Below, piece after piece: positions 1 to 24,300 of a stretch of DNA of 32,180 nucleotides. The position numbers and the translations under genes are program-made. The notes beneath the pieces were generated by a model that ran no database searches, was not told the DNA's origin, and worked only from the letters and a program-made list of their open reading frames with translations. The stretch's first letter is position 1. Each line of letters starts with the position of its first letter. This DNA is from an uncultured Eubacteriales bacterium (GTDB lineage: Bacteria > Bacillota > Clostridia > Oscillospirales > Acutalibacteraceae). Where the stretch lies: assembly GCA_900319255.1 (NCBI GenBank), contig ONNU01000158.1, forward strand, positions 1 to 32,180, read 5' to 3'.

Positions 1-106
1 AATAAATTATCTTACAATCGCGAGGAAAAAGCCTTGCATGGTCATAACTTACAACGCGAACATGACACCGGCGGCACGCCGGCGCGCCGGCTGCCGGCGT
101 CGGCTC

Positions 107-135
107 TTGCATTTGGCGGAATGTTCAGATATAAT
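107..135 (+). promoter_or_regulatory. Candidate housekeeping-sigma promoter for the response-regulator gene
   Basis: TTGCAT (107-112), a 17-nt spacer, then TATAAT (130-135). This would give a leader of about 150 nt to the ATG at 293. Sequence match only. Confidence 0.5.
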
Positions 136-292
136 AGGTCATAGAGGATAATTGATGGAATGCAGCTGTGTCAGTATATCCTGATACGTAATACGGAGAA
201 TCGGATATGCTGATGCGATGTCAGTCTGATGATCGGAACAATATCCGGATATGGTATGGCTGCGGTAATTATTATTCCAGGGAGAAAGATAT

Positions 293-1108: not shown

Positions 1109-1146
1109 GGGGCTGCCGCACTACGAAAGCGGCAGCCCCTTTCACT
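1109..1146 (+). terminator. Rho-independent terminator after the regulator gene
   Basis: Perfect 11-bp stem GGGGCTGCCGC (1109-1119) / GCGGCAGCCCC (1129-1139) with a 9-nt loop, followed by a short TTT tract. It starts 10 nt after the stop codon. Confidence 0.7.
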
Positions 1147-1159
1147 ACCATGATAAAAT

Positions 1160-1262
1160 ATTAAATTTTTGTAACAATTCTATATTAGAGATAAATCAAG
1201 TGTTATTTGTAACGCTTTTGTACGCTTTGTGATGTATAATATAACATAATGCATAAAAAAAT
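1160..1262 (+). promoter_or_regulatory. Conserved operon-1 promoter/operator block (copy 1 of 2)
   Basis: Near-identical to 14609-14710. Contains the palindromic box TTGTAACAA (1169-1177). Direct repeats TTGTAAC (1207-1213) and TTGTACG (1218-1224) are 11 bp apart. Perfect TATAAT at 1235-1240. There is no TTGACA-like hexamer at a 16-18 nt spacing. Confidence 0.7.
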
Positions 1263-1375: not shown

Positions 1376-1672
1376 ATGACAACAGAAGTAAAAAAAGCAA
1401 ACGGGGCTTACACGATCAAGATAAGCGGAGGTATTGATACCCTTACTGCGCCGGAGCTGGAGCAGACCTTCAAGGAAATCGAGCCGCAGGCAGATAAAGT
1501 CATTTTCGATATGAAAGAGGTCGATTATATTTCATCAGCAGGAATAAGAGTTCTTGTCTATGTACACAGAGCAATGTCATCAAAGGACGGGCTTGTGCTG
1601 CGGGGATTGAATAAAAACGTCAGCACGATCATCAGCCTGACCGGATTTGACAAGGTGCTGACTATCGAGTGA
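1376..1672 (+). CDS. STAS-domain protein (anti-sigma-factor antagonist, SpoIIAA/RsbV-like), paralog 1
   Basis: 98 aa. The ORF-track start (GTG 1313) is trimmed to ATG 1376, which sits 8 nt after AAAGAGG and matches the N terminus of the paralog at 14864. Carries the STAS signature DYISSAGIRVLV, including the Ser that is phosphorylated in SpoIIAA-type proteins, and the C-terminal LTGFDKVL. Confidence 0.9.
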   Translation: MTTEVKKANGAYTIKISGGIDTLTAPELEQTFKEIEPQADKVIFDMKEVDYISSAGIRVLVYVHRAMSSKDGLVLRGLNKNVSTIISLTGFDKVLTIE

Positions 1673-6700: not shown

Positions 6701-9700
6701 TTGCATATGTTCCTGTAAAGCTGCTGCATAAGATGTTTGAAGCTGCGGCAGATAAATATCCGGAGAAGACCTCCCTTATCGCATGTGATCGTTCTCTTAC
6801 CCTTGCGGAGCTTGAAAGCGAAGCTAACAGAACTGCAAATGCGCTGATCTCCAGGGGTTTCAAAAAGGGAGAATGCGCAGTCATCATGCTCAGCCGCACC
6901 TCACGCTTTTTTGCAGCGCTGTTCGGTGTTCTGAAAGCGGGAGGAGCGTTCATTCCCACAGACCCGGCATATCCTGCGGAGCGTATTCACAGCGTACTTG
7001 ATGACAGCGAGGCGCGCTTTGTTATCACAGACGAGCCGAATGAAGAGTATGATAACTGTGTTACCATAGACGAGCTTCTTTCCTGCGCAGATGATACAAG
7101 ACCGGAAATCGAGGTAAGCCCTGATGATCTTGCATATATGATCTACACCTCCGGCTCCACCGGAAAGCCAAAGGGCGTAATGCTGCGCCACATCGGCATA
7201 TGCAGCTATCTTACCCCGAATAAAGCAAATCTCCATATGCAGTATCTTTACGATCATATCAGCACCTATCTTTCCATAACAACGGTCGCATTTGATATGT
7301 CATTCAAGGAGCACTGTGCCACCCTGTGCAACGGCAAAACGCTGGTATTTGCTTCTGATGAAGAAATGAACAACCCCAAGCTTCTTGCGGAGCTTATGGA
7401 TAAATACAAGGTCGACTGCATCAACGCTACTCCGTCAAGACTTCAGCAGTATCTGTTTGTTGAAGCCTTCCGCAGATCAATTGCAAACTGTAAATGCGTG
7501 ATATCCGGCGGCGAGGGCTATCCGCTGGCGCTGCTTAAAAATTTAAAGGAGTATGCGCCGGATGCCTGCATTTTCAATACCTATGGACCGACTGAGATCA
7601 CCGTTTCCTCAAATGTTGCTGATCTGACCCATGCAGAACAGATCTCCGTCGGCAGACCTCTGCTCAACTATATTGAATATATCGTGGATAAAAACGGCAG
7701 TCTTGCGCCCTTCGGCGTTACAGGCGAGCTTTATATCGGCGGTATCGGTGTAGCAAAGGGCTATAAAAATCTGCCGGATAAAACCGCAGCCTCATTTGTT
7801 GATTACCGCGGTCAGCGCATTTACCGTTCCGGCGATTTTGCAAAATGGGACAAGGACGGCAATGTGCTGATACTTGGCAGAATGGACAACCAGGTCAAGC
7901 TGCGCGGACTGCGTATTGAGCTTGGCGAGATAGAAAGCGTAATTGAAAGCTATGACGGAATAAAGGAAGTAGCCGTTGCTATAAAAACCATAGCAGGAAC
8001 GGAGCACATTGCGGCGTATTACACAGCGGATTCTGAAACAGACCCGAACGCCGTCAGAGAATATGCCGCATCAAAGCTGACACATTATATGGTTCCCACA
8101 GCTTATCTGCAGCTTAAAGAAATGCCGTATACGCTCAACGGCAAAAAGGATATGAAAAACCTGCCCGAGCCGCAGCTTCTCAAAAATTCCGCTCCGGATA
8201 GCAGCTCACGCAAGCTGACTAAATTTGAAAAAGAGCTTTGCGGGATCGCCGGAAAAGCGATCGGCTCAGAAGTAACGGACGTTTCTTCAAGCCTTGTAAG
8301 TCTCGGACTTACCTCGCTGAATGCAATTGCATTTACGACCTTTGTCGAGGAAAAATACGGCTGTGATATCCCGGTAGGAAAGATAATGCACGGCATGAGT
8401 ATTATTGAAGCAGAGGATCTGATCTATGATCACCTGATGCAGGGCGGCGCAGGAAAAGCAGAAGCAGACCTGCAGGCTGATATCCAGGAAACCTATCCGC
8501 TTTCAAATAATCAGCTCGGAGTTTATTACGAGGTCATGAAAAAGCCCGAGGAGCTTATGTATAATATGCCCCTTTGTTATTGCTTTGAAAGCGTAGATGC
8601 ATACAGACTGAAGGCTGCGCTTCTGAAGGCACTCGCAGCTCATTCCTATATGAACACGCACATCGAGATCAGAAGCGGCAACCTTGTTCAGGTAAGAAAT
8701 GATAATGCTGATCCCGTGATCCCGATAACCGAAATGACATATGAAGAGCTTGAAAAACGTAAAAATGAATTTGTACGCCCGTTTAATCTTCATTCGGATC
8801 TGCTCTACCGTTTTGAGATCATAAAGTCAGACAGCAGGACATATCTGCTTTCCGATATTCACCATATAATCTTTGATGGTCTTTCACGGGGAGTATTTAT
8901 GGATGCAGTTTCAAAGGCTTATGCAGGCGAAGAGCCGGGAAAAGAAAAGCTGAGCTATTTTGAATATGCATTGAATGAGAATAAGGAAAAGGATTCCGAA
9001 AGCTATCGTGAGTCAGAAAAATACTTCTCCGATATGCTCAGTAAATTTGAATCTGTCAGTGAGATCCCTGCTGATAAGAAGGGACGCTCAGAGGACGGAC
9101 GCATTGGTGTTGTGGAAGTGCCGATGGAGCGTGACGCAATGGAGCAGTTCTGCCGGAAGAATTCAGTAACGCCGTCGTCATTGTTCCTTGCTGCGACCTT
9201 CTACACAGTTTCACGCTTTACCAACAGCAGGAATGTCTATATCTCCACAATTTCCGGAGGCAGAAATGACAGCAAGGTGCGCAGGACTATCGGAATGTTC
9301 GTACATACCCTGCCGCTTCATATGAGCTTTGAAAAGGATATTACAGCAGGAGAGCTTATCGAAAGCTCAAATCAGGCAATGCTTCTCGATGTGGAGCATG
9401 AAAACTATCCGTTTATGCAGCTTGCTGATAAATTCGGCTATTCCACGGAGATTATGTATGAATGCCAGCTCGGTGTAGGCGGGGCAAAGCGTACTGTAGG
9501 CGATGCTGAATATTCCACAGAGTTCATGAAGCTTGAAACGCCGAAATTCAAGGTGACCATCGCCATAGAGGACAGAGCAGACGGAATTGCTGTTTCCATA
9601 CGCTATAACGATGCGGTATATACAAGAGAATATATGCTCACTCTCGCTGATTCTATAAAAAATGCAGCTCAGAGAATGATCACAGATGCGTCAGCATCCG

Positions 9701-12700
9701 TAAGGGAAATATCTCTTCTCAGCGACAGCGAACAGCAGGAGATGGAATCCATCAGCTGCACAGCCTGCGAAGAGCCTGCATCAGAGCTGCTTCATAAGCT
9801 TTTTGAAAAGAGCGCTGCTGAAAATCCCGATAATACGGCATTGATCGCTTGTGACGCTTCGCTGACCTATACACAGCTGAATCAGAATGCCAACCGTATC
9901 GCTCATATGCTGATAAATGCCGGTGTAAAGCCAAGGGACAGCGTAGTATTGCTGCTTCCCCGCAGAAGCTATTATTTTGCTTCGCTGTTCGGCGTGCTGA
10001 AAGCGGGCGCAGCATTTATCCCCTGCGATCCCGAATATCCTGCTGACAGGATCAGGCATATTATCGGTGACTCAGACGCAGCATTCATAATCACGACCGA
10101 AGATCATATGTCTGATTATCCTGCTGAAAAGGCATTGCTGATAGACGATCTTCTTCTCGGTAACGAAACGGATAATCCCGATGTTGAGATCAGCGGCAGT
10201 GACCTTGCATATATGATCTACACCTCAGGCTCTACAGGCAAGCCCAAGGGCGTAATGCTCACACATAAGGGCATATGCAGCTTCTGCACGACACACAGCG
10301 CAAATATCCTGTATCAGCTTGTAGAAAAGGAAATCAATACAATGCTGGCAGTGACCACTGTATCCTTTGACCTTTCATTAAAGGATACAGTAGGCATACT
10401 GTGCAGCGGCAGGACGGTCGTTTTCGCTTCTGAAACAGAAATGAATGACCCGCGTGCGCTTAAGCTGCTTATCGAAAGCAATAACGCCGATGCAATGAAC
10501 GCTACCCCGTCACGCTATCTGCAATATATGGAATACGAGCCTTTCAGAAAGGCTCTCAGCCGCTGCAAGCTGGTAATGGCAGGCGGCGAAGCATTCCCTG
10601 CAGCTCTGATGGAGCAGCTGAAGGAGCTTGGCATCCCGAATATCATCAATACCTACGGACCCACTGAAACCACTATTTCAAGCAATATGGCATTCCTGCA
10701 AAACGCAGATCATGTATCCGTGGGAAGACCGCTGCTCAATTACCATGAGTATATAGTGGATATTGACGGAAACCCTGTTCCAAAGGGAGTGACAGGCGAG
10801 CTTCTTATCGGAGGCTATGGCGTTGCGAGAGGCTATAAGAATCTGGATGAGCAGACTGCTGCAAGATTCATCGACTACCGCGGCGAGCGTGTCTATAAAT
10901 CAGGCGATTATGCAAAATGGGACAGCGATGGCAATGTTATCATACTTGGCAGAATGGATAACCAGGTCAAGCTGCGGGGACTGCGTATCGAGCTTGGCGA
11001 GATCGAGGGTCTTATCGACGAGCAGCCTCATATCAAGAAAGCTGTGGTTGTCATTAAAAAGCTTGCGGGCGTTGAAAACCTCTGCGCTTATTATACAGCC
11101 GATTGTGAGATCAAGCCCGAGGAGCTTAAACAGGAGCTTGCAAAATCCCTGACCCATTATATGGTCCCGACAGCTTATCTGCAGCTTGATACCATGCCGG
11201 TGACACCAAACGGCAAGACCGATCTGAAAGCGCTTCCCGATCCGGTAGCAGTTACCTCAGGCGAGTATTCTGCGCCGAAAAATGAAACAGAGGAATATTT
11301 CTGCGGGCTGTTCAAAAAGGTATTGAAGCTTGAAAAGGTAGGAGCAACCGACAGCTTCTTTGAGATCGGCGGCACATCGCTGCTTGTCACCTCTGTTGTC
11401 ATTGAAGCAGCTGAGAACGGCTATGAGATAACCTATGGCGATATTTTCCGCAAGACCACTCCCCGGGAGCTTGCAGAGATGTTCACATCAGAGGACGCAG
11501 ACGAAGGTGTTCGTATCGTTGATTTTGATAATTACGATTATTCAAAAATCAATGAAATGCTTACTCATAACAATATAAAAACTCTTTGCGAGGGCGAACA
11601 GCGACCCATCGGAAATATCATGCTCACGGGAGCTACCGGCTTTATGGGAGCACATGTTCTTGCTCATTATCTTAGCAGCGAGACCGGCAGAGCTTATTGT
11701 CTTATCAGAAAAGGAAAATTCGATTCACCCAAAGAGCGTCTGAAAAACATTTTCTTCTATTATTTTGAAAGCGAGCTGGAGAATGAATTTGACAGCCGCG
11801 TTACGGTATTGGACGGCGATGTTACCAATTACGATCAGTTCGTTCCCTTTGAAACGCTGCCCATCGACACCGTTTTCAACTGCGCTGCCAATGTCAAGCA
11901 TTTCTCCAACGGAACGGATATTGAGGATGTCAATGTAGGCGGCGCGCAGAACTGCGTAAAGCTTTGTAAAAAGATCGGCGCAAGGCTTATACATTTCTCC
12001 ACCACCAGCGTATGCGGCGCAAGCGTGGATAATCAGCCTCCCGCAGGCACTGTGCTTGACGAACAGTCACTTTATATCGGACAAAGACTGGATACCAAGT
12101 ATACCAATTCAAAGCTTCTTTCCGAGCGCGTAGTTCTTGAAGCAGTGGCAGATAATAAGCTTGATGCAAAGGTCATCCGTGTGGGTACTCTTTCCGCGAG
12201 AGAAAAAGACGGTGAATTCCAGATCAATTTCCTTACCAATAACTTTATGGGACGCCTGCGTTCATTTGAGATCATCGGCTGTTTCCCGTATTCCATGATA
12301 AATTCACCCGTATGCCTGAGTCCTATTGACGAAAGCGCAAAGGCATTTTTCGCGCTTGCAAAAACGCCGAAGGAATGTTGTCTGTTCAACTGCACCAATA
12401 ACCATTCTGTACCTCTTGCCGATATAATAACCCAGATGCAGAGATCAGGAATGAACGTAAAGCTCACAGATGATAATGTATTTGCAGAAGCCTTGTCCGC
12501 TGCCGAAAAGGATCCGCAGAAGGCTGCCATTCTTTCAAGTATGCTTGCCTATAAGAATATGGCGCACGGAAAAATGCTTGTTCCGATCCTTCCTGTGAAT
12601 AACTATACAACACAGGCGCTGGCAAAAATGGGATTCCTGTGGAAGCCCAGCAGCGAGAAATATATGCTTGATTTCATTGCTGCGCTTTCATCCCTTGACT

Positions 12701-12729
12701 TCTTTGACAATACTAATCTGAGCAGGTAA
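3724..12729 (+). CDS. Trimodular NRPS with terminal reductase: A-T-C-A-T-C-A-T-R
   Basis: 3001 aa; RBS AAGGAGAGG at 3711-3719. A3 motifs: LIYTSGSTGNPKG (about 4120-4160) and AYMIYTSGSTGKPKG (about 7132-7180 and 10204-10255). A10 is NGK-x-D. Carrier Ser codons: 5269-5271 (GGDS), 8314-8316 (GLTS), 11377-11379 (GGTS). HHxxxDG at 5785-5805 and 8860-8880. Reductase motifs GATGFMG (11629-11649) and YTNSK (12100-12114). Confidence 0.97.
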   Translation: MSKLTGKLKTVFEDYCDKTAVTESFSGRSITYRELDILSGKIAAKLKADGIGKNDIVPILLPRSFEYIAAEIGAIKAGCAYAPLLDEYPAERIEYICSDCGAKLVIDEKYLSLSAELDPLTEYGDNAENDKALLIYTSGSTGNPKGVIHTHNSFYEGVRRNILNNGMSKSDRTLGIINFSFALSVDEVYDTIFSGAELFMLDNEERKDIRFVKSAIIDNHVTALYINPNMLKRLDLHGSSLRVAQTVGERLSDFYSDEYKIINVYGASETLCALAFELDKAYDNTPVGKAVDSFRAYIIDENGNEAAPGAEGEICVAGALSDGYLNLDEQTAAAFSKNPFSDDEGFRTIYHTNDIGKMLPDGNIIYVNRKDWMVKVNGQRVETGEIEVRIAADVEAVETAVVKAFENEYGMTYLAAYYQVRKGMSVTSEEIEAVLRKKLPDYMIPRFFTEMDKIPLNANGKVDRKSILPPQAASFKEEYAAPENETEKILCTAFEKILRCGQVGINDDFFALGGDSLLAMNLQLDCGLPGLSTEMIFAGKTPRRIAEKLLSSAPAAAFAAEKLSEYPLNPFERGMYIEQKLTPGSTMYNLIGFYEVSGASAESIRAALEEIFRSHEAFHSVYREKDGTILRVLVDEIPDITIEKTDDIREGYEAAKALSKPYDLSAGIPARAVIYTDGQSCLVALLYHHIMFDGGSDGIFARELLSRLSGGTLITDNYDLSAASQEDKEAAYDQGFEKYREMYSDGVPVTELPLKKSRPMYHPHSDTNRQFIIDGDSLQNLRQAAKEKKTTIFNILLASLAATTAKYTASEDVVIGVPVNERDSLTQNTIGMFVNTAPLRIRPVHDRSADEYLMEVSDTVSSFIKENHCPYDRLVAELVKERSDSRNPLFDVGINYIPMRKEYENGGISIRTSYILQSSGKDINFVMQAEESRITCYAQYSSELFDDDIISNFIEQFIFTAENLCSGAGTVQEAAKLPLIQKKALESFSTSSLAYVPVKLLHKMFEAAADKYPEKTSLIACDRSLTLAELESEANRTANALISRGFKKGECAVIMLSRTSRFFAALFGVLKAGGAFIPTDPAYPAERIHSVLDDSEARFVITDEPNEEYDNCVTIDELLSCADDTRPEIEVSPDDLAYMIYTSGSTGKPKGVMLRHIGICSYLTPNKANLHMQYLYDHISTYLSITTVAFDMSFKEHCATLCNGKTLVFASDEEMNNPKLLAELMDKYKVDCINATPSRLQQYLFVEAFRRSIANCKCVISGGEGYPLALLKNLKEYAPDACIFNTYGPTEITVSSNVADLTHAEQISVGRPLLNYIEYIVDKNGSLAPFGVTGELYIGGIGVAKGYKNLPDKTAASFVDYRGQRIYRSGDFAKWDKDGNVLILGRMDNQVKLRGLRIELGEIESVIESYDGIKEVAVAIKTIAGTEHIAAYYTADSETDPNAVREYAASKLTHYMVPTAYLQLKEMPYTLNGKKDMKNLPEPQLLKNSAPDSSSRKLTKFEKELCGIAGKAIGSEVTDVSSSLVSLGLTSLNAIAFTTFVEEKYGCDIPVGKIMHGMSIIEAEDLIYDHLMQGGAGKAEADLQADIQETYPLSNNQLGVYYEVMKKPEELMYNMPLCYCFESVDAYRLKAALLKALAAHSYMNTHIEIRSGNLVQVRNDNADPVIPITEMTYEELEKRKNEFVRPFNLHSDLLYRFEIIKSDSRTYLLSDIHHIIFDGLSRGVFMDAVSKAYAGEEPGKEKLSYFEYALNENKEKDSESYRESEKYFSDMLSKFESVSEIPADKKGRSEDGRIGVVEVPMERDAMEQFCRKNSVTPSSLFLAATFYTVSRFTNSRNVYISTISGGRNDSKVRRTIGMFVHTLPLHMSFEKDITAGELIESSNQAMLLDVEHENYPFMQLADKFGYSTEIMYECQLGVGGAKRTVGDAEYSTEFMKLETPKFKVTIAIEDRADGIAVSIRYNDAVYTREYMLTLADSIKNAAQRMITDASASVREISLLSDSEQQEMESISCTACEEPASELLHKLFEKSAAENPDNTALIACDASLTYTQLNQNANRIAHMLINAGVKPRDSVVLLLPRRSYYFASLFGVLKAGAAFIPCDPEYPADRIRHIIGDSDAAFIITTEDHMSDYPAEKALLIDDLLLGNETDNPDVEISGSDLAYMIYTSGSTGKPKGVMLTHKGICSFCTTHSANILYQLVEKEINTMLAVTTVSFDLSLKDTVGILCSGRTVVFASETEMNDPRALKLLIESNNADAMNATPSRYLQYMEYEPFRKALSRCKLVMAGGEAFPAALMEQLKELGIPNIINTYGPTETTISSNMAFLQNADHVSVGRPLLNYHEYIVDIDGNPVPKGVTGELLIGGYGVARGYKNLDEQTAARFIDYRGERVYKSGDYAKWDSDGNVIILGRMDNQVKLRGLRIELGEIEGLIDEQPHIKKAVVVIKKLAGVENLCAYYTADCEIKPEELKQELAKSLTHYMVPTAYLQLDTMPVTPNGKTDLKALPDPVAVTSGEYSAPKNETEEYFCGLFKKVLKLEKVGATDSFFEIGGTSLLVTSVVIEAAENGYEITYGDIFRKTTPRELAEMFTSEDADEGVRIVDFDNYDYSKINEMLTHNNIKTLCEGEQRPIGNIMLTGATGFMGAHVLAHYLSSETGRAYCLIRKGKFDSPKERLKNIFFYYFESELENEFDSRVTVLDGDVTNYDQFVPFETLPIDTVFNCAANVKHFSNGTDIEDVNVGGAQNCVKLCKKIGARLIHFSTTSVCGASVDNQPPAGTVLDEQSLYIGQRLDTKYTNSKLLSERVVLEAVADNKLDAKVIRVGTLSAREKDGEFQINFLTNNFMGRLRSFEIIGCFPYSMINSPVCLSPIDESAKAFFALAKTPKECCLFNCTNNHSVPLADIITQMQRSGMNVKLTDDNVFAEALSAAEKDPQKAAILSSMLAYKNMAHGKMLVPILPVNNYTTQALAKMGFLWKPSSEKYMLDFIAALSSLDFFDNTNLSR
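11605..12726 (+). other. Terminal SDR-type thioester reductase (R) domain of NRPS 1
   Basis: Rossmann motif LTGATGFMGAHVL, then HFSTTSV, then YTNSK (Y-x-x-x-K). No thioesterase motif follows the last carrier domain. Confidence 0.85.
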
Positions 12730-12734
12730 AAGCT

Positions 12735-14465
12735 ATGAAAAGAAAAGGAACTTTGCTACGAAATAAATTCAATGAGTATCTGATGTCCACCCTTGCCATG
12801 AGCGCATCGCTGTACCTTGCTGCTATTGTCGATAATATCATGGTGGGTAATATTCTCGGCACAGATGCTCTTGCGGCGGTGAATCTTACATCCCCGCTTG
12901 TCTATGTCAAAAATATCGTTTTCAGCATTTTCATCTACGGCGGCAATACGCTTGTCGCCATGTACAAGGGCAAACGCGATAATAAAAGCGCTGACAAGGC
13001 ATTTACATTTTCGCTGCTGTTCGGAATAATCGCATCAACGATCGTGATGACTGCCGGTATTCTTTTAGCTCAGCCAACTGCTACGTTCCTGTCGCAGGGG
13101 GGAGCGCTGTATGAAAATGCATTTGCGTATATCATTCCCCTGTGGGCAAGCGGACCGCTGATTGTTCTCAACAGCGGCTCTGCTGCCTATGTCAGGACAG
13201 ACGGTCTGAAAAAGCTTGCGATAGCCCTCCCCATATCTTCCAATGTAATCAATCTTGCGTGCGATTATATTTTTATGAAATGGTTCGGCTGGGGTGTTGC
13301 AGGCGCAGGATGGGCAACGGTTGTAGGCTATGCTATCGGCTCATTCCTTCTGATCATTTACTTTACTTCAAAGCAGCGCACCGTGCATTTTGTAAAGGTG
13401 TCATTCAGGGATATAAAGCAGCTTGCGGGAGTTCTTCAGACCGGACTTCCCACAGCGCTTATCCATGTCTGCAATGCTGTCCGCACCTATACGGTCAACG
13501 GCGTTATCCTTGCATCAGCAGGAACAGTGGGAATGCAGGTGGTAACGATCTGTTTGTCAGCGTTCAATGTTGCGCTGATCTTCATAAACGGCTCTGCAAC
13601 AACGCTTATGCCTATCTGCGGCGCCCTTTACGGAGAGCGTGACAATAACGGCGTCAGATATGTATTAAAGTTTTCGCTCATTGTCACGGAGATTATGTGC
13701 TTTGTTGTTCTTGCGGTGTTTGAGCTTTTTCCGGTGGCAGTCGGCGGATTGTTCGGAAAGCTTTCTCCCGAGACCGCCGCGCAGCTTGAGGGCGCTTTGC
13801 GTATATTCTCGGTCTGCATACCCTTCTATGGTATCTCCTATATTTTAAGAGCCTTCTATCAGTCAACCAAACAGCGGGGAGCTGCTTCACTCTTTACAAT
13901 ACTTGAGGGCGTGGTATTCATCGTTCCGATGATCTATATTTTCTCCAGAACCAGTCAGACGCTGATGTGGCTGTCCTTTGCATTGGCAGAGATAGCTGCG
14001 ATCATCACTACTGCGCTTACCATGCAGATCATTGCAAAGCGCAAAAAGCTCGGCAGCTTCCTTATGATAGACAGCTCCGGTGAATCGGGAGTGCTGGATA
14101 TGACGATAGATAATGAGGTCGAAAGCGCCGTTGTCGCATCGAGAAAGATCAGGAAATTCTGTAATGAAAATAATATCAGCGATACCCTCAGCACGATACT
14201 GACCGTTACCTCTGAGGAGCTTGCAGTCAACGCTGCAAAATATGCCTACAAAGGTAAAAGCGAAATTGATGTCTGCCTGAGAATTCTCGAAAACAAACTG
14301 GTGCTGAGATTCAGGGATAACGGTATGATATTCAATCCCACAGAATATATAGACGACTCGGGAAAAGAAGTCACCGGACTTCTGGTTGTCCGCAAGCTCA
14401 CTCCTGATATCAGCTATAACCGTGTTCTTGGCTTCAATGTTACTGTTGTTACTCTTGACAGATGA
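12735..14465 (+). CDS. MATE-family efflux transporter fused to a C-terminal RsbW/SpoIIAB-like domain, paralog 1
   Basis: 576 aa; starts 5 nt after the NRPS stop. The N-terminal ~445 aa are multi-helix with a MATE-like start (LAAIVDNIMVGNILGTDALAAVNL). After a KRKK stretch the tail reads SEELAVNAAKYAYKG and RFRDNGMIFNPTEYIDDSG. Confidence 0.88.
   Translation: MKRKGTLLRNKFNEYLMSTLAMSASLYLAAIVDNIMVGNILGTDALAAVNLTSPLVYVKNIVFSIFIYGGNTLVAMYKGKRDNKSADKAFTFSLLFGIIASTIVMTAGILLAQPTATFLSQGGALYENAFAYIIPLWASGPLIVLNSGSAAYVRTDGLKKLAIALPISSNVINLACDYIFMKWFGWGVAGAGWATVVGYAIGSFLLIIYFTSKQRTVHFVKVSFRDIKQLAGVLQTGLPTALIHVCNAVRTYTVNGVILASAGTVGMQVVTICLSAFNVALIFINGSATTLMPICGALYGERDNNGVRYVLKFSLIVTEIMCFVVLAVFELFPVAVGGLFGKLSPETAAQLEGALRIFSVCIPFYGISYILRAFYQSTKQRGAASLFTILEGVVFIVPMIYIFSRTSQTLMWLSFALAEIAAIITTALTMQIIAKRKKLGSFLMIDSSGESGVLDMTIDNEVESAVVASRKIRKFCNENNISDTLSTILTVTSEELAVNAAKYAYKGKSEIDVCLRILENKLVLRFRDNGMIFNPTEYIDDSGKEVTGLLVVRKLTPDISYNRVLGFNVTVVTLDR
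14093..14462 (+). other. RsbW/SpoIIAB-like (HATPase_c_2-type) tail domain of exporter 1
   Basis: N-box-like EELAVNAAKYAY and G1-like DNG. The lid region has only one Gly (EVTGLLVVRKL). Boundaries are approximate. Confidence 0.7.
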
Positions 14466-14519
14466 AAGCAACCCCGGCAAATAATAATAGCCGTATAAAA
14501 TAGTTTATATCTATATGCT

Positions 14520-14577
14520 CCGACTCCCGTAGATCAGAAATAGCACTGATTTTCAGGGTGTCGGGGCGTTTTCTTTT
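14520..14577 (+). terminator. Probable rho-independent terminator ending operon 1
   Basis: CCGACTCCC (14520-14528) pairs with GGGTGTCGG (14556-14564) with one mismatch. There is inner ATCAG/CTGAT pairing, followed by GGCGTTTTCTTTT. Confidence 0.55.
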
Positions 14578-14608: not shown

Positions 14609-14710
14609 ATTAAATTTTTGTAACAATTCTTTATTAGATAAAAATAGCCTGTTTTTGTTACGCTTTTGTACGCTTTTTAATGTATAATATATATAATGCA
14701 TAAAAAATCA
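14609..14710 (+). promoter_or_regulatory. Conserved operon-2 promoter/operator block (copy 2 of 2)
   Basis: TTGTAACAA (14618-14626), TTGTTAC (14655-14661), TTGTACG (14666-14672) and TATAAT (14683-14688). The 11-bp phasing and the 17-bp distance from the proximal box to the -10 are the same as in copy 1. Confidence 0.7.
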
Positions 14711-14863
14711 GGATAGTCAGATATTCTGATTAGGATATTTTATTATTCTGTGAATATGATGTATCATTTTCACTTTCCACTGATGTGAGCTTTGTTTTGT
14801 ACGGCGGACGTGGGAATGATACTTCAGCAATAACCAGAAAAAACTAAGAAAGAGGTATTTGCT

Positions 14864-15160
14864 ATGACAACAGATGTAAAAAATGAAAATGAGGTTTACA
14901 CAATTATGATCAGCGGCAGGATAGATACTCTTACCGCGCCTGAGCTTGAGCAGAAGTTCAAGGAGATCCAGCCGGATGCAAAAAAGGTCATATTTGATAT
15001 GAAGGATGTGGAATACATTTCATCGGCTGGAATGAGAGTGCTTGTTTATGTCCACAGGGAAATGTCATCGAAGGACGGACTTGTTCTTCGCGGACTTACC
15101 AGAAACGTCAGCACCATCATCGGACTTACCGGATTTGACAAGGTACTGAATATTGAGTGA
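14864..15160 (+). CDS. STAS-domain protein (anti-sigma-factor antagonist-like), paralog 2
   Basis: 98 aa with RBS AAGAAAGAGG upstream. By my count 79 of 98 residues are identical to the STAS protein at 1376-1672. The EYISSAGMRVLV motif is retained. Confidence 0.9.
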   Translation: MTTDVKNENEVYTIMISGRIDTLTAPELEQKFKEIQPDAKKVIFDMKDVEYISSAGMRVLVYVHREMSSKDGLVLRGLTRNVSTIIGLTGFDKVLNIE

Positions 15161-15179: not shown

Positions 15180-15352
15180 TAGACGATTGTAAATTGGCAA
15201 ATGGTCGTCTGCCCGCCGCAGGAAGTGCCCTTGGGGTGCGGGCGGACACCTCGCCAAAAGCCTGAAAATCCTTGGAAAACGGAGAAAATTGATTATTCTA
15301 AATACAAATAAATCCGCATAAACACAGGCTTTTCTGTATTTTACAATCAGCT

Positions 15353-15382: not shown

Positions 15383-18300
15383 ATGTACCAGAGTATCATC
15401 CGGAAAATTCTGGATAATGTCAAAAACGCCCCCGACACCATCGCGATCATTGACCAGGGCGAGGGCAATCAGTTTACCTACAGTGAATTTGAAGCATATG
15501 CTCGCAGGGTAGCAGGAAAGCTCAGCCGTCTGGGAGTGAGCCGCAATGACTTTGTAACGATCGAGCTTCCGAGAAACAAGGAATATATCGCATCAATGGC
15601 AGCTGTATGGATGACGGGAGCAGCATTTGTGCCTCTTTCACCGGCATACCCTGCCGAGAGAGTGCAGTTTATCCGCAGCGACTGCAGCGCAAAGGCTGTG
15701 ATCGACAGCGCCTTTTTAGAAAATATAGGAAACGAAGCTCCCATTGAAGATATTGCTTCAGTCGAACCCTCCGATCATTCCCTTATGATATACACCTCAG
15801 GCTCGACCGGAAAACCCAAGGGTGTACTTCATTCCCATCTCAGCATCAGCGACTCTGTATTCCGCTTTCTGGAATATGCAGACAGCCCCGCAGGCTTCCG
15901 TGCGGCGGTAGGCGCGCCGTTTACATTTGTTGCATCGGTGCAGGGCGTATTTGAGCCGCTTTGTGCCATTAACACCGCGGTGCTTGTTCCGTATGAGGCA
16001 ATGCGCGACCCTGTTCTGCTGGCAGATTTTATTGAGCAGTACCAGGTGAACAGATGTTTTATCAGCCCCAAAATGCTCAGGGTATTCAAAGCAAAGGGCA
16101 ATTCCCTTAAAATCGTATCCACCGGCAGCGAGCGTGTTTCAAATACATACAGCGCAGATTATACGATACAGGTAGCCTACGGTCAGACAGAATCCGCAGG
16201 CGCTGTTATGATGTTCAGAATTGATAAGAAATATGATAATACTCCCATCGGCAAGCCCATCGGAAATGTAAAGGCTTATCTTCTGGATGAAAATAATCAG
16301 CCTGCCGATGAAGGCGAGATGTGCCTTGCAGGCAATTTTGCAACAGGATATCTGAATCTGCCCGAGCTGACAGAAAAGACCTTTATCCCGAACCCCTTCT
16401 TTGAGCAGGACGGATTTCCGAAGCTTCTCAAAACAGGCGATATCTGCAAAAAAGGCGAAAACGGCAATTATATCTATCTGAACCGCAAGGACTGGATGGT
16501 CAAGATCAACGGTCAGCGCGTAGAACCGGGAGAGATCGAAGCTGTACTTAAAAACACTGACGGAATAGCCGATGCTGCGATCAAGGATTTTAAAAATACC
16601 TTCGGACAGGTTTATCTTGTCGCATATTATACAGAAAAGGAAGCAGTTGACGTTGAAGCGCTGAAAGCAAAGGTCTCCGCGCAGCTGCCGCCCTATATGA
16701 TACCCTCGTTCTTTGTCAGACTTGATAAGCTGCCGGTTAACCAGAACGGCAAGCTGGACAGAAACGCTCTGATCCCTCCCGAAGCAGGCGAATTCAAAAA
16801 TGAATACGCTGCTCCTGAAACAGAGCTGCAAAAGGCTCTTTGCTCAGCATTTGAAAAGATACTCGAAGCGGAGAACGTAGGTATTGACGATGATTTCTAT
16901 GCTCTCGGCGGAGATTCCATAAAGAGCGCGATGATTGCCCGTGAATGCGAGGCTTATCATCTTTCCACAGCTGTTATCCTTGCGGGCAAAACTCCCCGCG
17001 GTATCGAGCATATGATAAAGCGCTCAGCGCAGAAGGCATCTGTTGTCAGAAAGGAAAACAAGCCCAAGGTCTATCCGCTGACTTCCTCTGAACGGGGAAT
17101 GTATCTGGAGCAGAAGCTTTATCCTGATTCTGTTTCCTTCAACCTGAATATCGGCGTGATGATAAGCGGTGCAGACGCCGAAGCTGTCAGAACAACACTG
17201 GAGAGCATTTTCTCCTCACATGAAGCCTTCCGCTCCACCTACGGCGAGGAAAACGGTCTTCCTGTCCGCATCGTTACTGACAGGCTGCCCCAGATCATTG
17301 AAAAGACAGCCGCAGCAAGGGAAGATGTAATTAAGATAATTGACAGCTATGCCGAACCGTTTGATCTTTGCGCTGATATCCCGGTGCGCCCCACGCTTTA
17401 TACTATCTCAGACGGCGAGGTCATTCTCCATATGGCTATCCATCATATTGCTTTTGACGGCGGCTCTGCAAAGCCCTTTATCACAGAGCTGATTGACGGC
17501 TTGAACGGAAAAATGCCGGAGGCTGCTACGATAGATCTGTCGGATCTTTATGATTGTCAGACGGAGGAGCAGCATGAAAACGGACTTGCTTATTATCGAA
17601 ATGTCTTTGCCGATGGAGTTCCCGTGAACGAAATGCCGACTAAAGCCCGCCGCCCGAAGGTACATCCGGTTTCCGACCGGGAGATCGCCTTTGATCTCGA
17701 CACTGCTAAGGCAAGGCTGATGGATAAAGCTGCGCGCAAATTCGGCGTAACAAGATTTGAGCTGATCTTTGCGGCTATTTCTATGGCTCTCGGAAAGTAC
17801 ACCTCTTCCGAGGACGTTGTGCTGGGTATTCCCACCGATATGCGTCCCAACGGAGCGGAGGGTGTTATTGGAATGTTTGTCAATACAGCTCCCGTGCGTG
17901 TAAAACCGGTAAGAAGTATGGAGCTGAACGATTATTTTGCCGCTGTAAGCGAAGCTGTGCGCGGAGCTACATATGGAGCATCCCTGCCCTTTGAGGATAT
18001 CGTGGCGGAATTTGTCAAAACGCGCGACGAAAGCCGCAGCCCCATATTTGATGTCAGCGTAAACTATCTGCAAAAGCCGGCTGTTTACCGCAGCAGCGGT
18101 CTGATTGTGGATATGTATTCTCCATTGCAGAACATGACCCGTGATATAGCCATTGTCATAAGCAACAGCGAGGATGGTATGCGCTTCGTTGCAAGGTATT
18201 CCGGAGAGCTGTTTGAGGATGATATGATCGAAAGCTTCCTCGGACAGGTAAGGCATACTGTTGATATCTTTACAGGCAGCGAAGCTAAAACCGTCCGGGA

Positions 18301-21300
18301 TGCTCTTGCTTTGCCGGAAGCGCAGGCTGAGCGTCTGGAGGCATTTTCATCCGAAGCGACCGCAGAAATATCCGATGTACTGCTACACCGTGTCTTTGAA
18401 AGGGCAGCGTCAGCTTCACCGGAGAAAACAGCGCTCATAGCCTGCGATAAGACCGTAAGCTTTGAAGAGCTGAATAACAATGCGAACCGTATCGCCCACA
18501 GCCTTATGGAAAAAGGCATAAAGCCGGGTGACAGCGTTGTTCTGCTGCTGCCGAGAAGAAGCTTCTATTTTGAAGCAGTATTCGGCGTTTTGAAATCAGG
18601 CGCAGCCTTTGTACCCTGCGACCCTGAATATCCTCCGGACAGGATAAGCCACATTACCGAAGATTCCGGTTCGCGCTTTATCATAACGACAGAGGATCGC
18701 GCAGCAGATCATCCCTCCGAAAAGACGCTTATCATACATTCACTTTATGAAAACAGTGATACAGAGGATCCGGACGTTCAGATGTCAGGTCAGGATCTTG
18801 CGTATATGATATATACCTCAGGCTCCACAGGCAAGCCAAAGGGCGTTATGCTGACCCATGCCGGTATATGCAGCTTCTGCACCACACATCATGCAAATAT
18901 CCTGTATCAGCTTGCCGATGAGCAGATAGATACCATGCTTGCTGTCACCACCGTATCATTTGACCTTTCCCTCAAGGATACCCTTGGTATTCTTTGTAAC
19001 GGCAAGACCGTTGTATTTGCCTCAGAAACGGAGATGAATGATCCTCGTGAGCTGACAGCCCTGATAAATAAGAATCATGTGGACGCGATGAACGCAACAC
19101 CGTCCCGTTATATGCAGTATATGGAATATGAGCCATTCTGTGAAGCGCTCAGAGGCTGCACATTGGTAATGGCAGGCGGCGAGCTGTTCCCGGCAGCCTT
19201 GCTTGAAAAGCTGAAATCCCTTGAGATACCTCATATTATCAACACCTACGGTCCTACGGAAACTACCATATCCTGTAATATGGCATTTCTGCAGAATTTG
19301 GATCATGTCACAGTCGGAAGACCGCTGCTGAATTATAAAGAATATATTGTTGATAAATTCGGAGATCCGGCTCCCTGCGGAGTAGTAGGAGAGCTGTATG
19401 TGGGCGGACCGGGTGTTGCAAGAGGCTACCGGAATCTGCCTGAAAAAACAGCTCAGTCATTTGTTGATTACCGCGGACAGAGAATGTACCGCACAGGCGA
19501 TTATGCAAAATTTGACAGGGAAGGCAAGGTCTATATTCTCGGCAGACTTGACAGTCAGGTCAAGCTGCGCGGTCTGCGCATTGAGCTTTCCGAGATAGAG
19601 GAGCTTATCGCAGCGCAGCCTCACATTAAAAAAGCAGCTGTTGTCATCCGCAAGCTGGGAGGACAGGACAATCTCTGCGCCTACTTCACAGCCGATACGG
19701 AGATCGACATTAACGCATTGCGCAGCGAGCTGAAAAAGCATCTTACACATTATATGGTTCCGGCTGCATTTTTACAGATGGAGGAGCTGCCTGTTACAGC
19801 AAACGGCAAGACCGATACAAAGAGCCTGCCCGAGCTTACACTTGAAGCCCGGCAGACCACAGCGCCTCAAAGCGAAATGCAGCAGCGCATATTTGATATT
19901 GCTGCGGAGGTTCTCGGCAATAGCAATTTCGGAATTGAAACCGAATTGTATGCAGCAGGTCTGACATCACTTAACAGTGTAGGCTTCTGCATCAGACTCA
20001 GCGATGCATTCGGAGTGACCGTTCAGATCCGTGACCTGCGGGATAACGACACCATTGAAAAGCTTGAAGTCTTTATCAGGACGCTTGAACAGCAGGATAC
20101 CGAGGAATTTGAGATATTTGACGAATACTCCATTACCAAAACACAGGAGGGCATTTTCTTTGAAACAATGTCCCATCCTGATATTACGATCTATAATATC
20201 CCCACGCTTCTGAAGATAGATAAAGCAATAGATACGGAACGCCTGAAAAAGGCTGTGGCTGCTGCTGTCAACGCTCATCCGTACCTGATGACAAAAATGT
20301 TCATCAGCAAGATGGGTGAGATCAGACAAAAGAGAGCCGAAAGAAGCTTTGACGAAAGCGAGATCACCGATATCCGCTGCGGCAATATTGAAGAGGTAAA
20401 GAATGACCTTGTAAAGCCCTTTGATATTGAAAATGAAAAGCTGTACCGTTTCAGCGTGATCGAAACAGACGAAGGAAAATATCTGTTCCTTGATATACAC
20501 CATATTGTATTTGACGGCGAATCAAAGAAGATACTTCTGCGTGATATCACCGCAGCATATAACGGCGAAACGCTTACACCTGAAAAATACAGCGGCTATG
20601 AAGCTGCTTTGTCTGAGCAGAAGCTCCGCGCAGGCGAGCATTATGACAGATCAAAGAAATACTATACCGAGCTTCTGGACGGTGTTGAAAGCGACTGTCT
20701 GCCCATCGGCGATGTTCTTTCCGATTCTCAGAAAAAAGACGGCGGTACGCTGAATTTAAGCGGAAAAGAAAGCGTCCCATCATCTGTCAGAGCGTACTGC
20801 GCTGAAAATCATGTCAGTGAAAATGCATTCTATACAGCTGTATTCGGCTGGCTTCTTGGCAAATACTGCGGCAGAGAGGACGACTCATTGTTCATGACTG
20901 TCAATAACGGAAGAAACGATCCCCGTTTCCGTGACAGCGTATCCATGTTTGTACGCACATACCCCGTACTTTGCAAGCTCAGCACCAATTCTGTATCCGA
21001 CTATATCAGCGAGATCGGCAAACAGCTGTCAGACAGCCTGCAATATGACGTATATTCCTTTGCAGAGATAAGCCATGACCTTCATGTAAGCGCTGACGTG
21101 CTGTTTGTATATCAGAGCACCATGACTGACGGAAAAACATTCACCTTCTGCGGCGAAAAGGCAGAGAACGTCCCCCTGACCTTTGACGAGGAAAAGGCAA
21201 AGATCGAGCTGCTCATTTATCCCAACGGCGACACCCTGAGCTATCATGTTTCATATGATGCAAACACCTATACCGAAGATTTCATCCGGGATATGCTTGC

Positions 21301-24300
21301 GGCATATGAGCGCGCTCTTGCAGAATTTACAAAGCGTTCAGATACCTCAGAGATCCAGCTTGTTGACGAAGAGACCCTTGAAAGACTTGAAGAGAAAAAC
21401 CGCACCGAAAGTGATTATGAGATAACCGATATAGTAACACTGTTCCGCCGCCGCGCAGAGCAGTCCCCGGATAATATTGCAGTAGTATATCTCGATCACG
21501 TTTATACATATAAGGAAGTTGACCGTATCACTGAGAATATTGCATCATTCCTGAAAAGCAAGGGCATAGGGAAGGATCAGGCTGTATCCGTAATTATACC
21601 GCGCTGTGAATATATGCCCATCGCAGCTCTCGGCGTGTTAAAGGCAGGCGCAGGCTATCAGCCGCTTGACCCGAGCTATCCGCCGGAACGTCTTGAATTT
21701 ATGATACAGGATGCAGACGCAAAATATCTCATAGCTGACAGAACGCTTATGGACAGACTTCCGAATTATAACGGACCTGTACTTTATACCGATGAGATAC
21801 CCGATCTACCCGACGGTGAAAAAATAAGTGAAAACCCCGATCCGGGCGATCTGTTCATCATGCTTTATACCTCCGGCTCCACAGGCATACCAAAAGGCGT
21901 AATGCTTGAGCATCATAACCTGTGCAGCTTCTGCAACTGGTACAGACAATACTACAATATGGATGAAACGAGCCGCGCCGCAGCATATGCAAGCTATGGC
22001 TTTGACGCTCATATGATGGATATGTATCCCATACTGATTTCCGGAGGTCAGCTGCATATTATAGACGAGGCAATAAGACTTGACCTTCTGGCTATCAAGG
22101 ATTATTTCTGTAAAAACGGCATAACCCACAGCTTTATCACAACGCAGGTGGGCAGACAATATGCTGATCTGTTCCCCGATGCAAAGTATCCGCATTATCT
22201 CAGTGTCGGCGGAGAAAAGCTCGTTCCAATCGCTCCGCCTGAGGGCTTCCGTTTCTTCAACGCCTACGGTCCGACAGAATGTACTATCTTTACACATACA
22301 TATCCGGTTGATAAGATGTACAGGCGCGTTCCCATCGGAAGACCGCTGTTCAATATGAAGCAGTATGTTGTTGATAAAAACCTCAACCGGCTTCCCTTTG
22401 GTATTCCCGGCGAGCTGATAGTAGCAGGACATCAGGTGGGCAGAGGCTATCTTAACCGCCCCGAAAAGAACGCCGAGGTCTTTATCCGCAATCCCTTCTC
22501 TGATGAGCCGGGCTACGAGCATGCCTATCGCACAGGGGATATTGTGCGCATACTCAGTGACGGCAGCGTTGATATCATCGGAAGAAATGACGGTCAGGTC
22601 AAGATCCGCGGCTTCCGTATCGAGTTAAGCGAGGTCGAGGGCATCATCCGGAAGTTCCCCGGTATCAAGGATGCTACAGTACAGGCATTTGACGAAACCG
22701 GCGGCGGTAAGTTCATTGCGGCATATGTTGTTGCTGACGAGCCTGTTGATATTGACGCTCTGGGCGCTTTCATCAAACAGGAGAAGCCTGCATATATGGT
22801 TCCTGCCGTTACGATGCAGATCGACCGCATACCGCTGAATCAGAACCAGAAGGTCAACAAGCGCGCCCTGCCCGAACCGGTCAAAGCAGGAAAGACCTCC
22901 GATAATGAACATCAGGCGCGCCCTCTTACACGTTTTGAGGAAGAGATCGCATCGGTGGCAAAGCGTCTTTTAGGAGACATGGAAATGCATCCCGCAGAGC
23001 CGCTGACAAGCTATGGTCTGACAAGTATCAGCGCTATCGGACTCGTTGCAACGCTTGCAGATAAATTCAATGTGGAAATTTCTGCGCCCAGACTGCTTGA
23101 CGGCGCCAGCATCATAGATATTGAGAATATGATCTTTGAGGATTGGATGAAGCAGGGCTTTGCAAATAAACCCGAGCCTCAGAACGCCGCTGCGGAGGAA
23201 AAGCCAGTAACAGACAGAGCGCCGCTTTCAGCGGTACAGCTTGCAGTCTATTATGATGCAATGAAAAACGAAGCTGACGTTGTATATAATATTCCCATGT
23301 GCCTGCAATTTGACAAGCTGGATGCGCAGAAGCTTGCTGAGGCTGTGAAAAAGGCGGTAGCCGCACATAGCTATCTCAATACACATATAGAGCTTTGCGA
23401 CGGCGAGCTTATCCAGGTAAGGGATGACAATGTTCAGACACAGGTCGAGATCCTTACGCTTAACGAGGAAGAACTGGAGTATTACAAGAATACATTTATC
23501 CGACCCTTTGATCTGCACACAGGACCCCTTTATCGTTTTGCAGTGATCAATTCGGGAGAAAAGACCTATCTGTTCCTTGACATCCACCATCTGATATATG
23601 ACGGAATGTCAAGCGGAGTGCTTCTGCGGGATATCGGCAGAGCATATACAGGCGAAGCTCTTTCCGCAGAGGAATATACCTATTTTGATTATGCGCAGGA
23701 AAGCGATGAATTCAAGAGATCCGATGCATATGCAGAATCGGTATCATATTTTGATAAGATGTTCGAGCGCTTTGAAGCGCCCACTGAGATACCGACCGAT
23801 AAACCGGGAAGCGCAGAAAACGGCGTGATCGCCGAAGCATACTGCCCTGTTTCAAAGCAGGCTGTAGATACCTTCTGCCGTCAGAATAATATGCAGCCCT
23901 CTGCATTTTTCCTTGCTGCGGTATTCTATACAGTTTCCCGTTTTGCCGGAACAAAGAATGTTTACCTCTCCACTATTTCATCAGGACGTGAAAGTGTAAA
24001 AATGCGCCGTACAGTAGGTATGTTTGTGCATACACTTCCGCTTGCTATGAGCTTTGAAGAAAACCGCGATGTTCTGGAGCTTATCAATGCATCCAACAGC
24101 GTGATGAGGGGCAGTATACAGAATGAAAACTATCCCTTTGCTGAGATCGCCGCAAAATACGGATATAAAACCGAGATAATGTACGAATGCCAGATCGGTG
24201 TCGTTGCAGACGGCGGTGAGATCGGCGGCAATGCATATAAGAGTGTACGTCTGCGTTTTGAAGCTCCGAAATTCAAGACAGTTTTTGCTGTTGTAGAGCA

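Follow-up and report, generated by a model that had tools for sequence, protein, structure and literature searches.

A two-repeat box in the promoters of two paralogous nonribosomal peptide synthetase operons of a rumen Ruminococcus: a probable SARP/OmpR-type activator site

We describe a promoter element in a stretch of 32,180 nucleotides (the window; contig ONNU01000158.1 of GenBank assembly GCA_900319255.1, forward strand) from a rumen Ruminococcus whose nearest relatives are metagenome-assembled genomes (MAGs) of cattle, sheep and goat gut. The window contains two paralogous operons, with four genes in operon 1 and three in operon 2, each encoding a nonribosomal peptide synthetase (NRPS); the gene of a response regulator (293-1099) lies upstream of operon 1. 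Both operon promoters have a 22-bp box, which is composed of two 11-bp direct repeats and is followed, after 7 nt, by a perfect TATAAT. We believe that both promoters are probably activator-dependent and that the box is most likely bound by the adjacent regulator, which is of the SARP/OmpR type and would co-activate the two NRPS operons. Deep conservation within the promoter is limited to the box (block 2 of the alignment below) and the -10 hexamer.

Results

Likeness of the two promoter copies

The preliminary description of this DNA had reported about 100 bp of promoter DNA duplicated before both operons, with few mismatches in three blocks and about 15 nt of diverged spacer between the first two. 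Its coordinates and the three sequence strings quoted in it are correct: in the global alignment of 1160-1262 with 14609-14710, 88 of the 104 columns are identical. Block 1 agrees at 29 of 30 positions, the spacer (1190-1205 and 14639-14653) at 9 of 16 with one indel, the repeat box at 21 of 22, the 7 nt 3' of the box at 5 of 7, the TATAAT at 6 of 6, and the 20 nt after it at 18 of 20 (the coordinates are given in Table 1). The three conserved blocks together have 79 identical positions of 85, i.e., 93%. The pairwise alignment of the two intergenic regions, which had been proposed as a check, confirms the blocks: the best local alignment scores 139, compared to 20.7 +/- 2.7 (maximum 31) for 500 shuffles. 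At up to 3 mismatches, the window contains exactly two copies of the box (0.04 expected) and exactly two copies of block 1 (0.00 expected). Considering the shuffle scores and these expected numbers, chance likeness is excluded.

The blocks were also compared with the DNA around them. The STAS genes that open the two operons share 81% of their nucleotides, with an identity of 56% at third codon positions and 18 of 38 (47%) at four-fold sites; the NRPS and MatE gene pairs are 66-71% identical, and the remainder of the 5' untranslated region (UTR) agrees at 73 of 137 positions with many gaps. Nearby neutral sites are thus close to saturation. Fisher's test separates the blocks from the spacer (p = 7e-4), the remaining 5'UTR (p = 1e-10) and the STAS third positions (p = 5e-9); the binomial probability of 79 of 85 under the neutral yardsticks is 4e-14. 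It had been judged by eye that the non-coding blocks are at least as well conserved as most of the coding sequence next to them, and the figures for the blocks and the gene pairs agree with that judgement. The protein-binding constraint suggested on the same ground is supported on comparative evidence, since the blocks are conserved far beyond the STAS synonymous sites and the flanks, and the middle block with the -10 recurs at five other promoters.

No structure common to the two 5'UTRs was found; their folds are different. The 5'UTR of operon 2 (14695-14840) folds at -41.8 kcal/mol, far more stably than its shuffled versions (z-score -4.3), which is not so for the UTR of operon 1 (z-score -1.1).

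Architecture of the box and the -10

The box can be written as TTTGTNACRCT + YTTGTACGYTN, followed by 7 nt and the -10. The hexamer located 17 nt 5' of TATAAT is ACGCTT, and TTGTAA and TTGTAC are found at 22 and 11 nt from the -10; there is no usable -35 hexamer at 16-18 nt at any of the seven promoters with the box that are listed below. Because the -35 is missing, the consensus promoter scan did not list either operon promoter. Transcription is predicted to start approximately 7 nt past the -10, at ~1247 in promoter 1 and ~14695 in promoter 2. Counted from these predicted positions, the box extends from about -41 to about -20 and has its centre at ~-30.5.

According to the published rule (PMC10936776), the direct repeats of a SARP promoter are spaced by 11 or 22 bp, and the 3' one stands 8 bp away from the -10; the afs box consists of two repeats of 11 bp and has its centre at -29.5. 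The 11-bp distance is present at seven of our seven promoters. The 3' repeat lies 7 nt from the -10 and replaces the -35, in agreement with the distance of about 8 bp in SARP promoters, although the heptamer register is undefined here and the comparison is approximate.

The box in other genomes

We scanned one genome per species (185,579 species, the window's own species not among them) with the 18-base box query TTTGTNACNCTTTTGTACGNT, which gave seven matches, four in Clostridia and three in other phyla. The four Clostridia matches all have a TATAAT or TATACT at a distance of exactly 7 nt from the 3' end of the box, and all are directed towards a gene or transcript downstream; the other three (Bowmanella, a Bacteroidales MAG and a Flavobacteriales MAG) are within coding DNA and have no -10. 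Two of the Clostridia matches belong to Ruminococcus sp. RGIG2444, where they are found on different contigs, one before the orthologue of NRPS 1 (82% amino acid identity) and the other before the orthologue of NRPS 2 (63%). The third (L041) is from the GC-rich MAG of an uncultured member of the Clostridia, where it precedes a STAS gene, and the fourth (L038) is from Bacillota bacterium RGIG5688.

The scan of JGI metagenomes gave one real site, L045, which is an RGIG5688-type locus with its upstream DNA; here the genes of a kinase and of a regulator with 51% identity to the window's end 36 nt 5' of the box. The three remaining JGI matches represent one chance sequence inside a coding region and were discarded. 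In L048/L049, which carry the closest regulator homologue (73%), the box has one mismatch, lies on the opposite strand and drives a divergent gene for a secreted beta-helix-repeat protein. In L030-L033, the genes of a 69% regulator orthologue and a histidine kinase are divergent from that of a 3001-aa NRPS, whose promoter is TTTGTCACACT TTTGTACGTTA CGAATGT TATAAT.

In total, repeat 1, repeat 2, the 7-nt gap and the -10 are common to seven promoters from five organisms; five of these promoters are additional to the window's two and come from four other Clostridia. The start-to-start distance of the repeats is 11 bp at all seven, and the gap between repeat 2 and the -10 is 7 nt, again at all seven. 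A homologous regulator gene adjoins the box in four of the five organisms (the window, L030/L039, L045 and L048). The box is 107 nt past the regulator stop codon in the window, and in L030/L039 the kinase and regulator genes are divergent from it. The proposal that the two operons are co-regulated is supported by this comparison, since the same box stands before both of them and before both NRPS orthologues of RGIG2444 on separate contigs. Strain variants of the same species (12 loci) have an identical promoter and are uninformative.

Eight other STAS-NRPS loci, with STAS homologues of 59-74% identity, have no box, and several of them have a canonical -35/-10; the related box-less STAS-NRPS promoters have TTGCAA, TTGAAA or TTGCTT at 17-18 nt. 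Therefore, the box tracks the regulator lineage rather than the STAS gene.

Three loci of this comparison deserve a separate mention. In L045 (1102-1330, equivalent to L038 24-250), the box promoter is followed by only ~170 nt and then by an intrinsic terminator; no convincing open reading frame and no Rfam match were found in this segment, and its transcript is a candidate small RNA or small peptide message under this regulator family. In L043 (6835-7796; RGIG2444), a Mutator-family transposase fragment and a TnpV gene are located upstream of the box promoter of the NRPS 2 orthologue, and the leader, of ~330-400 nt, is followed by an NRPS whose start corresponds to about residue 564 of NRPS 2 in the window. 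In L028 (5853-7058), the genes that come after a STAS homologue (67%) are those of a reverse transcriptase (RVT_1) and of the toxin-antitoxin pair PhdYeFM/ParE instead of an NRPS.

The response regulator

Taken alone, the window regulator matches Pfam Response_reg with an E-value of 9e-15 and Trans_reg_C with E-values of 0.0016-0.005, the latter below Pfam's cut-off; it also has weak matches to AfsR and EmbR, of which the EmbR alignment extends to chain residue 135. Trans_reg_C is found in 17 of 18 family members (best E-value 2e-9), and many homologues with this domain are named SARP-family response regulators by their sources. The AlphaFold model built from an alignment of 46 sequences has a pLDDT of 89.9 (the single-sequence model, with a pLDDT of 40, is unusable), and its best full-length Foldseek matches are the OmpR/PhoB regulators DrrB, PrrA, KdpE, CosR, RpaA and PhoP. 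The profile of the C-terminal 143 residues has AfsR as its best match (E-value 3e-4), ahead of generic OmpR regulators. The OmpR-type winged-helix domain of the SARP family is thus present, as indicated by Trans_reg_C in the family, by the fold and by the AfsR profile match. It is followed by ~40-43 residues (226-268) that form three short helices in the model.

The receiver fold is also present, although the phospho-acceptor Asp, the acidic pocket and the Thr usual for a response regulator are altered. The window regulator has N8, E55 and A84, as opposed to D, D and T in 45, 42 and 45 of the 46 homologues, respectively; K104 is kept. No histidine kinase gene is found beside it: positions 1-292 are non-coding and there is none among the predicted downstream genes. 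The orthologues that keep D55 (L030 and L045) have an adjacent kinase gene, and the only other homologue with E55, P0114 of L048, likewise has none. Since E55, N8 and A84 are combined here with the lack of a kinase gene, we presume that the window regulator probably works without phosphorylation and is an orphan derived from a two-component regulator.

Regulators encoded beside a box have almost the same recognition helix and wing (YLRALTQDLRNTL, RKHNQWAIRKD). These elements differ in the two paralogous regulators of L005, where the neighbouring STAS-NRPS promoter is canonical and box-less.

RNA evidence

The RNA data are assembled contigs from eight rumen metatranscriptomes covering both operons, with a depth of 2-10 and no strand information. 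In these eight runs, no contig spans 1064-1254 or 14496-14670, and block 1, the spacer and repeat 1 are in no contig. The leftmost contigs of operon 1 begin at 1255 and 1267, those of operon 2 begin at 14716, 14780 and 14814, and the contigs of operon 1 end at 14472-14495. These ends fit transcription from just past the first -10.

We also considered an RNA element as the reason for the conservation and rejected it: the leaders at the seven promoters differ wholly in length and sequence, and the RNA contigs begin after the blocks. Rfam gave no RNA family, either for the whole window at the gathering threshold or for the second promoter/UTR at E-values up to 1.

Block 1 and the stretch after the -10

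Neither block 1 nor the post -10 stretch has a copy at the other box loci; both are confined to the two promoters of this species. The TTTGTAACAAT of block 1 is a third copy of the repeat core, located 38 or 37 bp 5' of repeat 1 and out of helical phase with it; no convincing palindrome was found in the block. After the -10, a second -10-like hexamer follows the first at 10 nt (CATAAT, copy 1) or 9 nt (TATAAT, copy 2), so the stretch looks like a tandem duplication of 9-10 nt of the -10 region; the orthologous promoter of L039 has a single TATAATGCAT and no tandem copy.

Between the copies, both parts exceed neutral sites in conservation, yet neither is present at the positionally orthologous promoters of RGIG2444. 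Either this species has acquired them as functional additions of its own, or concerted evolution along with the STAS gene has produced them in part. Candidate roles include a distal extra site for the regulator, a site for a second factor, and start-site context. Promoter-like matches on the minus strand at 1177-1150 and 1206-1177 were dropped, as they are not conserved in copy 2.

Discussion

The mechanism that we propose is as follows. A head-to-tail dimer of the regulator 293-1099 would bind the two repeats of the box, and, in the manner of SARP and PhoB-type activators, the bound dimer would make up for the contact that is lost with the -35. With the same box and the same replacement of the -35 at each promoter, the two NRPS operons would be switched on together, and the output would be set by the amount of the regulator or by some ligand, with no need for phosphorylation.

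A number of observations weigh against this proposal. The link between the regulator and the box is drawn from the adjacency of the gene and from the known binding mode of the protein family. No such regulator is encoded in the 6.7 kb upstream and the 1.3 kb downstream of the L041 box, and there is no box within 6 kb of P0115, a regulator of 70% identity that has the same recognition helix. The BTAD domain of Pfam, which is a part of the SARP definition, is not detected at E-values up to 10 in the window protein or up to 1 in 18 homologues; therefore, the protein is SARP-like rather than a full SARP. The out-of-phase repeat of block 1 is unexplained by a simple dimer model, and, since the RGIG2444 orthologues lack both block 1 and the post -10 stretch, these two may stem in part from gene conversion between the promoters. 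Finally, one RNA contig, X28 (14671-14931, depth 2.1), begins inside repeat 2, upstream of the -10; it may represent DNA carry-over or antisense RNA. Considering this contig and the low depth of the unstranded contigs, the transcription starts are predicted rather than mapped.

The box may be bound by a different transcription factor, for instance, another member of the OmpR/PhoB family such as a WalR-like protein, while remaining a shared co-regulating cis-element. The WalR site is TGTWAH-N5-TGTWAH; repeat 1 has the fitting TGTAAC in copy 1 and TGTTAC in copy 2, the 11-bp period suits any dimer of the OmpR family, and L041 has the box with no SARP-type regulator in the 8 kb around it. However, repeat 2 has TGTACG at all seven promoters, which is off TGTWAH at two of six positions, and repeat 1 of L039 and L045 has TGTCAC. 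Moreover, four of the five organisms have a specialised regulator gene next to the box, and the recognition helix of its product is conserved; we consider a different factor unlikely.

It is even harder to regard the box as an operator at which the bound protein represses an otherwise active promoter. The box does overlap the region that RNA polymerase must occupy, and regulators of the OmpR family can repress from such positions; but none of the seven has a usable -35 at 16-18 nt, in contrast to the related box-less STAS-NRPS promoters with their TTGCAA, TTGAAA or TTGCTT at 17-18 nt. The position and the repeat geometry also match the SARP activation rule (PMC10936776). We find repression quite improbable.

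With no selection involved, the copies could be alike simply because the promoter region was duplicated or underwent gene conversion recently. The promoter-plus-STAS segment is indeed 74-81% identical, compared to 66-71% for the NRPS genes, and the fact that block 1 and the post -10 block are common to the window copies but not to L039/L043 fits some concerted evolution. On the other hand, segments with 29/30, then 9/16 plus an indel, then 21/22 identical positions alternate, the UTR is scrambled, and the STAS synonymous sites are near saturation; such alternation of near-perfect and scrambled segments is hard to square with a single recent conversion tract. The box and the -10 are also kept across genera, the GC-rich genome of L041 included. 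As a general explanation, this one is very improbable: for the core it is effectively excluded, while for block 1 and the post -10 block it may hold.

A promoter of an alternative sigma factor, autoregulated as in the sigma-B operon through STAS/PP2C/RsbW-like partner switching, is suggested by the anti-sigma-antagonist-type STAS gene that opens both operons and by the RsbW-like kinase domains and SpoIIE-type phosphatase encoded in them, but we give it hardly any weight: the predicted genes of the window include no sigma factor, the -10 is a perfect housekeeping-type TATAAT, TTGTAA/TTGTAC at 22/11 nt do not have the spacing of a -35, and the box operons of RGIG2444 and L048 are not headed by STAS or partner-switching genes; thus, neither the sigma gene in the module nor the non-housekeeping -35/-10 of sigma-B/sigma-F autoregulated promoters is found here.

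Returning to activation by the adjacent regulator, its closest parallels are the SARP promoters of Streptomyces (the afs box of afsS and the targets of ActII-ORF4, RedD and DnrI). There, too, two 11-bp repeats fill the -35/spacer region with the centre at about -30, only a few bp separate the 3' repeat and the -10, the -35 is weak or missing, and an OmpR-type winged-helix regulator is encoded beside a secondary-metabolite cluster; among these regulators, AfsR is a SARP with a solved complex with RNA polymerase. In contrast to Streptomyces, the host is a rumen Firmicute, the regulator has an N-terminal receiver, a short tail and no detectable BTAD, the -10 is perfect rather than suboptimal, and the repeat TTTGTAC is unrelated to the SARP heptamers, which are of the TCGAG type.

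The Pho box and other class II sites of the OmpR/PhoB family (KdpE, PhoP, RpaA, WalR) are likewise occupied by a receiver-winged-helix regulator, and their tandem repeats, of 11-bp period, substitute for the -35. The same combination of receiver and winged helix, with tandem 11-bp repeats in the place of the -35, is found here, and the fold matches DrrB, PrrA, KdpE, PhoP and RpaA. The repeat sequence is different, however, the targets are secondary-metabolite genes, the regulator has neither the phospho-acceptor Asp nor a partner kinase, and its DNA-binding domain is by profile nearer to AfsR than to generic OmpR. A third parallel is presented by JadR1 and RedZ of Streptomyces, which are atypical phosphorylation-independent orphan response regulators of antibiotic clusters; regulators of this type have OmpR-type or NarL-type output domains, and some bind the end product. 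The window regulator is similarly an orphan with an altered phosphorylation pocket, encoded beside its presumed target biosynthetic operons; unlike those actinomycete proteins, it comes from a rumen Firmicute.

It is tempting to go further and to propose that SARP-like, pathway-specific activation exists beyond the Actinobacteria, in the form of a receiver-SARP hybrid family of gut and rumen Clostridia that controls reductase-terminated NRPS operons through a TTTGTAC-type box; its present kinase-less, phosphorylation-independent D55E member would perhaps respond to the peptide made by the synthetases or have a link to the partner switching of the STAS, PP2C and kinase-exporter proteins. We regard this extension as doubtful.

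The promoter pair would represent an OmpR/SARP-type activator box, that is, a known kind of switch in a little-studied bacterial group. Reductase-terminated NRPS clusters are common in gut and rumen Clostridia, and we found no literature on how these clusters are switched on; nothing relevant was found there on receiver-SARP regulators or on the STAS genes of NRPS clusters in Ruminococcus either. The box and its candidate activator offer a handle: expression of the regulator could turn on silent clusters of uncultured Ruminococcus in a heterologous host, and the box can be used to predict co-regulated genes in MAGs. If the proposal is true, the SARP rule (11-bp repeats centred at about -30 and replacing the -35) reaches from Streptomyces to Firmicutes, and the loss of the phospho-acceptor in two kinase-less orthologues is a small example of a two-component regulator turning into an orphan activator.

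Other features of the window

The features are listed in Table 1. Since a hairpin precedes each operon promoter, each conserved stretch is flanked by a terminator and an operon. The regulator's own promoter has the same layout, TTGCAT-17-TATAAT, as the regulator promoter of L048, and the scan of the window at up to 3 mismatches did not find the 22-bp box in it.

Table 1. Coordinates of the promoter elements, genes and hairpins in the window
Feature	Position	Strand	Details
GC-rich hairpin upstream of the regulator promoter	70-104		Very GC-rich
Response regulator promoter, canonical sigma-A type	108-136	+	TTGCAT, 17 nt, TATAAT; read from sequence
Response regulator, orphan, atypical, 268 aa	293-1099	+	Receiver, SARP-like OmpR/PhoB winged helix, short C-terminal helical tail
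Terminator hairpin 3' of the regulator gene	1109-1139	+	11-bp GC-rich stem; fold -26.5 kcal/mol, z -6.0
Block 1, promoter 1	1160-1189	+	Holds TTTGTAACAAT; conserved within this species only
Box of promoter 1, 22 bp	1206-1227	+	Repeat 1 TTTGTAACGCT (1206-1216), repeat 2 TTTGTACGCTT (1217-1227)
-10 hexamer, promoter 1	1235-1240	+	TATAAT, 7 nt after the box
Post -10 stretch, promoter 1	1241-1260	+	Second -10-like CATAAT (1245-1250) and ATGCATAAAAAA
STAS protein 1 (anti-sigma-factor antagonist type), operon 1 gene 1	1376-1672	+	Pfam STAS E 3e-15, TIGR00377 E 3e-18
HAMP + SpoIIE-type PP2C phosphatase + RsbW-like kinase domain (HATPase_c_2), operon 1	1742-3712	+	Domain search
NRPS 1, 3001 aa, terminal reductase domain	3724-12729	+	Domain lists; 82% identity to the L039 NRPS, first 411 aa
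MATE exporter fused to RsbW-like kinase domain, last in operon 1	12735-14465	+	Domain search
Terminator hairpin then U-run, end of operon 1	14515-14569	+	Fold
Block 1, promoter 2	14609-14638	+	29/30 identical to block 1 of promoter 1
Box of promoter 2, 22 bp	14654-14675	+	Repeats TTTGTTACGCT and TTTGTACGCTT
-10 hexamer, promoter 2	14683-14688	+	TATAAT, 7 nt after the box
Post -10 stretch, promoter 2	14689-14707	+	Second TATAAT at 14692-14697
STAS protein 2, operon 2 gene 1	14864-15160	+	80/98 aa identical to STAS 1
NRPS 2, 4022 aa, terminal reductase domain	15383-27451	+	63% identity to the L043 NRPS over residues 564-2669
MATE exporter fused to RsbW-like kinase domain, last in operon 2	27462-29204	+	Start 27462 set by alignment with 12735; repeat family D20

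The NRPS operons contain parts of a partner-switching system (STAS proteins, the PP2C phosphatase with its RsbW-like kinase domain, and the MATE exporters fused to RsbW-like kinase domains) with no sigma factor gene in the window, and the same gene set is repeated in many Ruminococcus NRPS loci, L004-L009 among them. All six contigs with this locus from different samples (L010-L015) stop 230-480 nt 5' of the regulator gene, as the window does, which suggests a repeat or a variable junction there.

Two observations concern the 222-nt gap between the genes of STAS 2 and NRPS 2, where operon 1 carries the phosphatase gene. A GC-rich hairpin is found in it at ~15203-15246. The 43 nt at 15310-15352 are included in deeper RNA contigs with unlike flanks in at least five metatranscriptomes; this is therefore a short sequence common to the window and another expressed locus.

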